A stretch of DNA of 64,000 nucleotides from Candidatus Jordarchaeales archaeon. Its GTDB lineage: Archaea > Asgardarchaeota > Jordiarchaeia > Jordiarchaeales > Freyrarchaeaceae. The stretch is taken from assembly GCA_038858525.1 (NCBI GenBank), contig JAWCFL010000006.1:3442-67441 (forward strand), in the 5' to 3' direction. Below, piece after piece: positions 28,333-29,980 of this stretch. The translations under genes and the position numbers were made by a program. The notes beneath the pieces were generated by a model, which was not told the DNA's origin, searched no databases, and saw only the letters and a list, made by a program, of their open reading frames with translations. Numbering within the stretch: the first letter of the stretch is position 1; every line of letters begins with the position of its first letter.

Positions 28333-29130
28333 CTAGTATATGTATGACTGAAACTCGATCTCGCTTCCTCTGCTTTCTTCTTTCGTTTCTTCAGCTTCTT
28401 CTCTGATTCCGTCATTTTCTATGGGCAAGTTAAGATATTTTTTAATGGTCTTCAAAAGCAACTTAGCTGCTTCCATATCGGTTTTTCCGGTTACGGCAAC
28501 TTTGCTATCAACTTTTGAGAGGAGGATCACTCCCTCGATTCCGTACTTTTCCTTTGCTATAACGGGAACCAAACCATTCGCTCCAACTATCTCGCCCTTA
28601 GGCATTCTTTCAAGCTTCTCAATTTCGGGAAATTCAAGCCCACCCGTACTCGTGAAGTACACCCTTCTCTCACCATTTTCGCAATCCGAGAGGTACCCTC
28701 CCAGCGTTATCAGAAACTTAACCTTGAAATCCGCCAGCAGCTTAGCTATTTGCTCAGATAGAGTGTATATTCCTGGAGCAGTCATCGGCTGGTCATCACC
28801 CGTAACAAGCAGAAGACTCCTTCCATCGGTATGGCTGTTCCAAACATAAACTTGAATCTGGGGCGGTCTCACGACACCATCCTCCACTATGACCATTGGC
28901 GGCATATCCGTGAACTCAACTTCAATTATCTTCTCCGCTTTCAAAGCTTCAATCAGCTTTCTGACCGTTAACGCCCCAACCTCCGTTATGTCTGGAAGGG
29001 CATGAACACACACAGCCTCCTCAAGCCCCCGCTTGGGCTTGACTTCCCTCACCGTTATTTCATACATATTTCTCACCATTTCCAGTGGAAATAAACCCAA
29101 ACTACCTAAATAACTTTTTAAAGTTTTCAA
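28333..29130 (-). CDS. PAC2-family (proteasome assembly chaperone-like) protein
   Basis: 265 aa. The LLVTGDDQP...ITLGGY pattern resembles archaeal PAC2/DUF75. Confidence 0.45.
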   Translation of the reverse strand: MKTLKSYLGSLGLFPLEMVRNMYEITVREVKPKRGLEEAVCVHALPDITEVGALTVRKLIEALKAEKIIEVEFTDMPPMVIVEDGVVRPPQIQVYVWNSHTDGRSLLLVTGDDQPMTAPGIYTLSEQIAKLLADFKVKFLITLGGYLSDCENGERRVYFTSTGGLEFPEIEKLERMPKGEIVGANGLVPVIAKEKYGIEGVILLSKVDSKVAVTGKTDMEAAKLLLKTIKKYLNLPIENDGIREEAEETKEESRGSEIEFQSYIY

Positions 29131-29449: not shown

Positions 29450-29980
29450 TTATATTGCAACATCCTCCACGAGATTAAGCTTCTTTATTACAGCTTTAGC
29501 GGCCAAGTCGAAAGCGGTATCAACGTTTACATTGTTCTTTGCGCTCGTCTCAACATGGTAAAGGATCCCGTGTTCATTCATAAACTTTTTAACGTCATCC
29601 TCATCCACTTTCCTATCTAAATCACATTTTGAGCCGACTAGAATCATAGGAATTTCGCCAGCGTTTTTCTTCGTCAGCTCAAGCCACTCCCTCAGGTTGA
29701 AGAAAGACTCCCTTCTAGAGACATCGTACACTAGTAGGGCAACGTTCGCCCCTTTGCAAAAATCGGGGAGTATCTCTCTGAACCTCTCCTCGCCACCAAA
29801 GTCCCATATCATTAAAGTGACATCGTCACCTCCAACTTTAAGTGTCTTCTTTTCAAAGCCGACGCCTATAGTCATCTTACCATCAAAGTAAGTTCCATCA
29901 CAATACCTCTTCACAAGCGTAGTTTTTCCAACGCCTCCATCTCCCTCCACAAGAACTTTAATTATGATCAACATACACAC
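29450..29980 (-). CDS. Ras/Rab-like small GTPase
   Basis: G1 is GDGGVGKTT, G2 is a Thr in TIGVGF, and G3 is WDFGGEERF, a DxxGQ variant in which the catalytic Gln is replaced by Glu. G4 is GSKCD and G5 is ETSAK. 176 aa. Confidence 0.7.
   Translation of the reverse strand: MCMLIIIKVLVEGDGGVGKTTLVKRYCDGTYFDGKMTIGVGFEKKTLKVGGDDVTLMIWDFGGEERFREILPDFCKGANVALLVYDVSRRESFFNLREWLELTKKNAGEIPMILVGSKCDLDRKVDEDDVKKFMNEHGILYHVETSAKNNVNVDTAFDLAAKAVIKKLNLVEDVAI

Follow-up and report, generated by a model that had tools for sequence, protein, structure and literature searches.

The gene and its product

The 64,000-nucleotide stretch of Candidatus Jordarchaeales archaeon contig JAWCFL010000006.1 considered here (the window) encodes a Ras-like small GTPase on its reverse strand (29450–29974). 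The protein carries Glu at the position of the catalytic Gln in switch II, a substitution that recurs in a large subfamily of Asgard archaeal proteins. A mechanically called open reading frame (ORF) at 29450–29980 on the same strand starts with GTG at 29980, six nucleotides upstream of an ATG, and would specify 176 aa. The ATG at 29974, which is used in the NCBI version, is probably the true translation start and gives a protein of 174 aa. This product is 100% identical to NCBI proteins including MEM1512852.1 (P0001 in our homolog library), deposited under the name "Rab family GTPase [Candidatus Jordarchaeales archaeon]". Syntenic Jordarchaeales contigs carry two orthologs, one 83% and the other 71% identical to it, and a comparison with the 83%-identical ortholog (locus L003) gave a ratio of nonsynonymous to synonymous substitution rates (dN/dS) of 0.098, indicative of purifying selection. 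With a Pfam match and an AlphaFold2 model in further support, the ORF is a genuine, well-conserved Ras/Rab-like small GTPase gene.

All five G motifs occur in order in the translation within a domain of approximately 170 aa, the hallmark of the Ras superfamily among the TRAFAC P-loop proteins. In the 176-aa numbering, the G1 motif or P-loop, GDGGVGKT, comprises residues 13–20 (29921–29944, reverse strand, as for each motif here) and reads on as GDGGVGKTT; across the family its G, GK and T show little or no variation. The switch I Thr of G2 is T37 in KMTIGVGF (29870–29872), as located from the translation and a HMMER alignment. The G3 motif in switch II is WDFGGEERF (29780–29806), with the Glu specified by a GAG codon at 29789–29791; this residue is E64 in the 176-aa numbering and E62 in the 174-aa numbering. 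The G4 motif GSKCD (29621–29635) keeps the guanine-specifying Lys and Asp of NKxD and replaces the Asn with Ser. The G5 motif is ETSAK (29537–29551), of which the Ser and Lys are invariant in the family alignment. In an alignment of 47 sequences, the invariant positions (174-aa numbering) are G16, K17, T18, T35, D58, G61, K116, D118, S144 and K146, which include the contacts to the phosphates, the Mg ion and the guanine base. The protein is predicted to bind GTP and GDP with guanine specificity.

A search of Pfam identified the Ras family with an E-value of 2.1e-41 and a score of 141.6 bits, where the cut-off is 21.6, and TIGR00231 was matched at 3.4e-21. The best sequence matches in the PDB were Rab35 and Rab1A with E-values near 1e-34, and the identity to the eukaryotic Rab1, Rab35, Rab43 and Rab8 proteins is approximately 40% along the entire G domain. 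When a profile of the family was searched against the PDB, Rab43 was found at 3e-52. Neither switch II (wdfggEerf/wdtagQerf) nor G4 (vgSkcd/vgNkcd) contains a gap when HMMER aligns the protein to Rab35 and Rab1A, and in the alignment to Rab43, too, the Glu falls on the catalytic Gln position. Since there are no gaps in these segments, the Glu stands at the position of Q61 (Ras)/Q67/Q70 (Rab1A) and the Ser at the position of the NKxD Asn. The initial annotation, which had been made from the letters of the sequence, had named the five motifs, the two substitutions and a place in the Ras/Rab/Rho-like branch; each of these points is borne out. The departure from DxxGQ is a conservative, subfamily-wide change.

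An AlphaFold2 model built on the 47-sequence alignment has a high confidence (predicted local distance difference test, pLDDT = 91.9; predicted template modeling score, pTM = 0.88) and presents the six-stranded sheet and five helices of a G domain. From a Foldseek search, the model superposes on Rab1b, Rab43 and Rab8a with template modeling (TM) scores of 0.89–0.93 and root-mean-square deviations (RMSD) of 1.1–1.4 Å.

A glutamate-type subfamily in Asgard archaea

Rab-like GTPases had been described in the initial annotation as rare outside eukaryotes and Asgard archaea. By that very premise the surprise disappears, since the window comes from an Asgard archaeon of the Jordarchaeales, a member of a group whose many Ras/Rab-like GTPases have been described before (Klinger et al. 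2016; Surkont & Pereira-Leal 2016, PMC4915359; Tran et al. 2024, PMC10933270; Vargova et al. 2024). Lokiarchaeum has 37 predicted Rab-like proteins (PMC10933270). A set of 2922 curated Asgard Ras-superfamily sequences, in which Jordarchaeia are covered, has been sorted into the groups RasL, ArfL, ArfR, RagGtr, MglA and Rup3 (Vargova et al., bioRxiv 10.1101/2024.02.28.582541). As the gene has an annotation already and belongs to a published family, its mere presence is nothing new. In the literature searched, including the supplement of PMC10933270 and with Klinger et al. 2016 and alignment figures outside its scope, no text was found that singles out a subset with the WDFGGE motif, referred to here as Glu-type.

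The Glu and the non-Asn G4 motif are not confined to this gene. Among 121 close homologs (the 120 best and the query), 117 have Glu at the catalytic Gln position. At the first residue of G4 the same set has 63 Gly, 29 Ser, 13 Leu, nine Thr, six Ala and one Asn. Both features are thus subfamily-wide.

A scan of genomes, one for each species, returned at least 69 loci. Among the matches listed, 65 or 66 of 69 loci are Asgard, the count hinging on a contig labeled 'Deferrimicrobium' (L062). They include Loki-, Hel-, Hermod-, Hod- and Heimdall-type archaea along with the complete chromosome of Lokiarchaeum ossiferum. The 66 GTPase ORFs recovered from these matches divide into 43 of the Glu-type and 23 of the Gln-type. 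The bacterial matches listed are two Gln-type Roc domains in leucine-rich repeat (LRR) proteins (L071 and L072), one unrelated sequence (L073) and the L062 protein, which is Gln-type. In a library of representatives at 50% identity, many independent clusters have the pattern WD[FLV][GA]GE. After the G3 and G4 columns were masked, the nearest neighbor of a Glu-type sequence was itself Glu-type in 175 of 185 cases. Apart from some switches, the trait thus follows the relationships of the sequences. An exchange between Glu and Gln requires a single-nucleotide change. The switch I Thr is kept in 184 of the 185 Glu-type sequences.

The identity of the first G4 residue follows a different pattern. 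Gln-type Asgard paralogs with a WDF-type G3 also have mostly T/S-KxD in G4, and a non-Asn residue is equally common in Glu-type and Gln-type paralogs, so that it is not linked to the Glu. An Asn in G4 accompanies the eukaryote-like WDT[AG]GQ type, likewise found in Asgard genomes. TKxD is normal in eukaryotic Rac1, and the Ser of the Jordarchaeales protein is for this reason a mild departure. The combination of WDTGGQ and NKxD was observed at five Asgard loci (L044, L050, L056, L059 and L061) and in library proteins of 500–600 aa (P0213, P0226, P0240, P0245, P0260 and P0261). With this type present in Asgard genomes, a Glu-type protein is not the most canonical Ras-like form there.

Because the Glu is conserved across a large, coherent and essentially Asgard-restricted subfamily, the comparison indicates that it is a selected feature of these sequences and not a sign of decay. 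Glu-type and Gln-type proteins differ mainly at P70, R121 and E142, which the Glu-type has in common with eukaryote-like sequences, in a sample that is biased by having been gathered with a Glu-type query.

The significance of the substitution comes from the contrast with eukaryotic proteins. To our knowledge, the catalytic Gln is present in all textbook members of the Ras, Rab, Rho, Ran and Arf families. Among the Rab-like paralogs of Asgard archaea, a large and coherent fraction has Glu, cultured Lokiarchaeum ossiferum included, and it may therefore be unsafe to treat these paralogs as Rabs that need GTPase-activating proteins (GAPs). Asgard small GTPases bear on the origin of the regulation of eukaryotic membranes and cytoskeleton, and we know of almost none that have been studied biochemically.

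Proposed function of the glutamate

With moderate confidence, the product of this gene may be considered a soluble, single-domain Asgard RasL protein that most likely works as a guanine-nucleotide switch. In this reading, which is drawn from sequence comparison, the carboxylate of the Glu would assume the role of the Gln in positioning water, possibly as a general base. A function of the carboxylate at the attacking water is suggested because it is specifically Glu that is conserved. Intrinsic GTP hydrolysis would then proceed with kinetics unlike those of the Gln-type paralogs, and a GAP that provides an Arg or Gln finger may be unnecessary. The protein has neither a C-terminal Cys nor an N-terminal amphipathic helix; it would thus not be lipid-anchored in the manner of Rab or Arf proteins and would have to locate its targets through protein partners, presumably encoded at a distance from the GTPase gene. 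The absence of a lipid anchor agrees with published conclusions on Asgard Rab-like proteins (PMC4915359, PMC10933270).

When the three genes on either side of the GTPase were clustered across the 66 Asgard loci among the matches listed, the sole recurrent neighbor was another small GTPase, present at 14 loci (L009, L012, L013, L015, L016, L020, L022, L023, L030, L035, L056, L058, L060 and L061). The Glu-type does not occur among these second copies, of which 13 carry Gln and one carries Arg at the catalytic position. No Roadblock, longin, TRAPP-like or TBC-like proteins were seen among the recurrent clusters, which were judged by eye without a Pfam scan.

Studies of Ras and its relatives offer some precedent. 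In the work of Der and colleagues from 1986, Glu and Pro were reportedly the only substitutions at Ras codon 61 that were not transforming. According to a statement cited in PMC2987813, the Q61E variant of Ras has an increased intrinsic GTPase activity. Ras Q61E and Rap1, which has Thr at residue 61, are both Ras-fold switches that function without Gln61; Q61E is reported to be competent for hydrolysis (PMC2987813), and Rap depends on its GAP (PMC2265111). Ras Q61E is engineered and Rap1 is a eukaryotic variant, whereas Glu is the natural and conserved state of the archaeal subfamily.

Several observations weigh against a self-sufficient Glu. As the work of Der et al. (1986) is related in PMC6813200, GTP hydrolysis by Ras Q61E is approximately 8-fold slower, as in other codon-61 mutants, in conflict with the later report of raised activity (PMC2987813). 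The comparison of Glu-type and Gln-type sequences revealed no compensating catalytic residue, either as an intrinsic Arg finger or as a charge partner. The literature search turned up no biochemical data on any Glu-type member, and no solved Glu-type structure is among the top PDB matches. Thor-Rab (KXH73347.1, 7EZB), the sole crystallized Asgard Rab-like protein and, as far as is known, the only one assayed, is a more distant paralog and does not appear among the best 60 PDB matches of the query, of the family profile or of a Gln-type paralog.

A possible, though less probable, explanation is that the Glu-type GTPase is catalytically poor by itself and needs a GAP that supplies a catalytic residue in trans. 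The slower hydrolysis ascribed to Der (1986) in PMC6813200 would fit such a protein, as would the lack of an intrinsic Arg finger beside the switch I Thr. Rap1, with Thr at the Gln position, uses a residue of its GAP (PMC2265111). In the bacterial Rup1 proteins the G3 Gln is likewise missing, and the proposal made for them is a Gln provided in trans (Wuichet & Sogaard-Andersen 2015, PMC4316618). Rup1, compared here by its published description, further resembles the present protein in having Ras-like G1–G5 motifs and no coupling to MglB; its distribution is bacterial and not Asgard, and its conserved four-gene signaling neighborhood was seen neither in the window nor at the 66 Asgard loci listed. 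The 66 loci also contain no conserved neighbor that could be a candidate GAP, an observation that speaks to linked genes and not to a GAP encoded elsewhere. The strict occurrence of Glu, as opposed to any residue other than Gln, suggests that the carboxylate has its own role, and the raised intrinsic activity that PMC2987813 reports for Ras Q61E points in the same direction. Precedents for a residue supplied by a GAP are the Asn thumb in the Rap–RapGAP complex and the Gln finger in the Rab–TBC complex. The suggestion of altered hydrolysis chemistry or dependence on a partner, as made in the initial annotation, is a reasonable inference.

A bolder extension of the carboxylate reading, in which Glu-type RasL proteins would form a distinct catalytic class whose conserved carboxylate positions or activates water and allows self-timed, GAP-free switching, is speculative and rather unlikely. 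Glu-type and Gln-type proteins might in that case be Ras-like switches of two kinetic kinds within Asgard cells. The Glu-type profile matches eukaryotic Rabs (3e-52) more strongly than the crystallized Thor-Rab does. If the ancestor of eukaryotic Rab, Ras and Rho proteins were Glu-type, the change from Glu to Gln could mark the start of external GAP control in eukaryogenesis.

Relationship to Rab proteins

The sequence places the GTPase within the Asgard RasL/Rab-like group. Its gene lies in an Asgard genome (Promethearchaeati), and the ranking of the Pfam and PDB matches puts the protein on the side of Rab, Ras, Rho and Ran and not with ArfL, ArfR, RagGtr or MglA. As with other members of the group, the protein is a single G domain of approximately 175 aa with its best matches to eukaryotic Rab and Ras proteins; it has a short C-terminus without a prenylation Cys and no Roadblock/MglB coupling, and it belongs to a family with many paralogs per genome. 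Nothing categorical separates it from other RasL proteins, within which it falls in the Glu-type subset.

It is very improbable that the protein is a true Rab ortholog that acts in vesicle or membrane traffic as eukaryotic Rabs do, even though Rab1, Rab35, Rab43 and Rab8 match it best in sequence and fold (TM scores near 0.9) and NCBI names it a Rab family GTPase. ETSAK and an Arg a few residues downstream of G4 are also shared with these Rabs. The RabF1–F5 motifs that Pereira-Leal and Seabra reportedly defined in 2000 read IGVDF, KLQIW, RFRSIT, YYRGA and LVYDIT. Measured against this consensus, the translation agrees in part at RabF1 (IGVGF, 4/5), RabF3 (RFREIL, 4/6) and RabF5 (LVYDVS, 4/6) and poorly at RabF2 (TLMIW, 3/5) and RabF4 (FCKGA, 2/5). 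The G motifs also depart from those of eukaryotic Rabs, with Glu for the catalytic Gln, WDFGG for WDTAG and SKxD for NKxD. The protein ends in ...KKLNLVEDVAI, with no hypervariable tail and no CC or CXC site for prenylation. More generally, a Cys is found within the last five residues in only six of 185 Glu-type sequences as compared to 17 of 24 eukaryote-like sequences. There is no evidence here for Rab escort protein, geranylgeranyl transferase or TBC partners, and no homologs of Rab escort protein or Rab geranylgeranyl transferase were found for the Asgard Rab-like proteins in published work (PMC10933270). A large published phylogeny contains no Asgard sequence that is specifically sister to eukaryotic Rabs (bioRxiv 10.1101/2024.02.28.582541).

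A phylogeny of small GTPases, which had been proposed as a check on the family assignment, was calculated by neighbor joining (NJ) from 153 non-redundant sequences with 100 bootstraps. It comprised Asgard Glu-type and Gln-type sequences, representatives of the library and five human GTPases (HRAS, RAB1A, RHOA, RAN and ARF1). This rough tree bore out the assignment in one respect, as the GTPase was split from ARF1 and the MglA homolog of the window with a bootstrap of 61%. Its backbone bootstraps were near 0%, with the deeper nodes left unresolved, and for this reason no claim is made on the monophyly of the Glu-type or on its relation to Rabs; a grouping with eukaryotic Rabs receives no support from it. 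Since the GTPase lacks a prenylation motif, agrees only in part with the RabF motifs, and has no supported sister relation to Rabs either here or in the literature, it should not be filed as a eukaryotic-type Rab.

Comparison with MglA, Arf and Roc GTPases

A second GTPase is encoded on the forward strand of the window at 35611–36174. This MglA homolog (PDB 3t12, E=3.5e-36) is 5.6 kb away, in keeping with the MglA/Arf-like GTPase that had been placed some 6 kb from the RasL gene. Its G3 motif is TTAGQ and it retains the Arg of switch I.

That the RasL protein might itself be a prokaryotic GTPase of the MglA or Arf type, or a Roc domain, and not Ras-like is scarcely credible. Lower Pfam matches were recorded for Roc (E=6.5e-28) and Arf (E=2.4e-13, 50.4 bits), and a WDF-type G3 is also seen in the Roc domains of the bacterial LRR proteins L071 and L072; Ras nonetheless leads by more than 40 bits. 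MglA is absent from the best 60 PDB matches, whereas the other GTPase of the window finds it readily. As small Ras-superfamily GTPases of prokaryotes, the MglA proteins of Thermus and Myxococcus are comparable to the RasL protein in general terms. The characteristic features of the MglA family, a TVPGQ or GTPGQ motif in G3, an intrinsic Arg in switch I (group 1) and flanking Roadblock genes, are all missing from it: its G3 is WDFGGE, the residue before the switch I Thr is Met, and its gene does not adjoin a Roadblock gene. Arf proteins are marked by WDVGGQ, NKQD and an N-terminal amphipathic helix or myristoylation site; an Arf identity is opposed by the lower Pfam score and by the lack of an N-terminal helix, as the model begins directly with β-strand 1 (residues 3–10). 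A Roc domain of a ROCO protein would be followed by COR, usually with LRR or kinase domains, and the RasL protein is a single domain of 174 aa. An identity as MglA, Arf or Roc is refuted at the level of Pfam ranking, PDB matches, motifs and domain content.

It is equally hard to credit that the ORF arose by chance or specifies a pseudo-GTPase that is inactive or in decay, as might be suspected from the departures from DxxGQ and NKxD. This reading is effectively refuted by purifying selection (dN/dS of 0.098), by the invariant nucleotide-binding residues, by the occurrence of the same variant motifs in different Asgard classes, and by a canonical fold modeled with high confidence.

Genomic neighborhood

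The MglA homolog has three Roadblock genes around it, all on its own strand: a LAMTOR5-like gene at 34312–34614, a MAPKK1_Int/LAMTOR3-like gene at 34707–35174 and a third Roadblock/LC7 gene at 36280–36651. From this position they are part of an MglA module and not of the RasL gene. A search for neighboring Roadblock, longin or TRAPP-like genes had been suggested as a further check; no such partner is linked to the GTPase gene at 29450–29974. The Roadblock/MglA module (34312–36651) is likewise present at the Jordarchaeales loci L001–L003. With one GTPase and three Roadblock proteins, it resembles the MglA/MglB system or a Ragulator-like arrangement.

The region around the RasL gene is syntenic with the Jordarchaeales contigs L001–L003, which include NCBI assembly GCA_038886715.1. 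The shared order is enoyl-CoA hydratase, a small zinc-ribbon gene, the GTPase, PAC2, radical SAM, DUF72, CoA ligase and DHH. The PAC2-family gene (28333–29130, reverse strand; Pfam PAC2 E=6e-29), which is similar to proteasome assembly chaperones, lies downstream of the GTPase on the same strand across a gap of 319 bp that is AT-rich and contains T-runs. It is followed by the radical-SAM gene and then by other metabolic genes. The adjacency of the GTPase and PAC2 genes is kept at L001–L003 and absent from the more distant Promethearchaeota locus L004, where the gene context around the GTPase is unrelated, and from 66 other Asgard loci among the matches listed. The pairing is Jordarchaeales-wide synteny only, and PAC2 is mentioned here as context.

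Upstream of the GTPase is a divergent intergenic region of 705 bp (29975–30679) with a GC content of 0.32 as compared to 0.47 for the whole window, in agreement with the AT-rich noncoding flank of about 700 bp that had been noticed at the outset. An A/T-rich, TATA-like run, cattataattatattttt, is located approximately 30–45 nucleotides upstream of the ATG, which is directly preceded by GGGGTG. Only the 250 bp or so that adjoin the GTPase align with L003, and the corresponding gap in L001 is just ~256 bp. No Rfam match above threshold, no RNA fold signal (z-score 0.5) and no significant repeats were detected in the AT-rich stretch. It appears to be an ordinary archaeal divergent promoter and spacer region, the promoter function being predicted from its sequence. 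A 64-aa ORF within it (30209–30403) lies in an insertion specific to the window and is not conserved.

On the other side of this region, and divergent from the GTPase, is a 54-aa zinc-ribbon-like ORF with two CxxC pairs (30680–30844, forward strand). Conservation of its DNA extends to L001 and L003, and the gene calls of L001 and L002 have a gene of 48 aa at this place. All of its Pfam matches were below threshold; it is part of the context of the GTPase and not a demonstrated partner. Further along the forward strand, the 409-aa mechanical ORF at 31254–32483 is too long and runs across the enoyl-CoA hydratase gene, which is encoded on the other strand. From the gene calls in L001–L003, the true gene is probably a nucleotidyltransferase (NTP_transf_2) of approximately 200 aa at the 3' end of this ORF.

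Other RasL-related proteins

Two further observations were made among the homologs. A RasL protein with the motif WDFGGEERF (P0016, loci L074/L075) bears the database name 'Rab family GTPase [Candidatus Deferrimicrobium sp.]' and comes from a bacterial metagenome-assembled genome. Its contig of 9 kb carries histidine-biosynthesis genes and a PadR regulator, and it could represent either a mis-binned Asgard contig or a horizontal transfer. The top-scoring representatives of the library (P0121–P0127) are 500–2300 aa in length with three to six tandem Ras/Rab-like domains, mostly of the WDTAGQERF type; they may be true multi-GTPase proteins or fused gene models.

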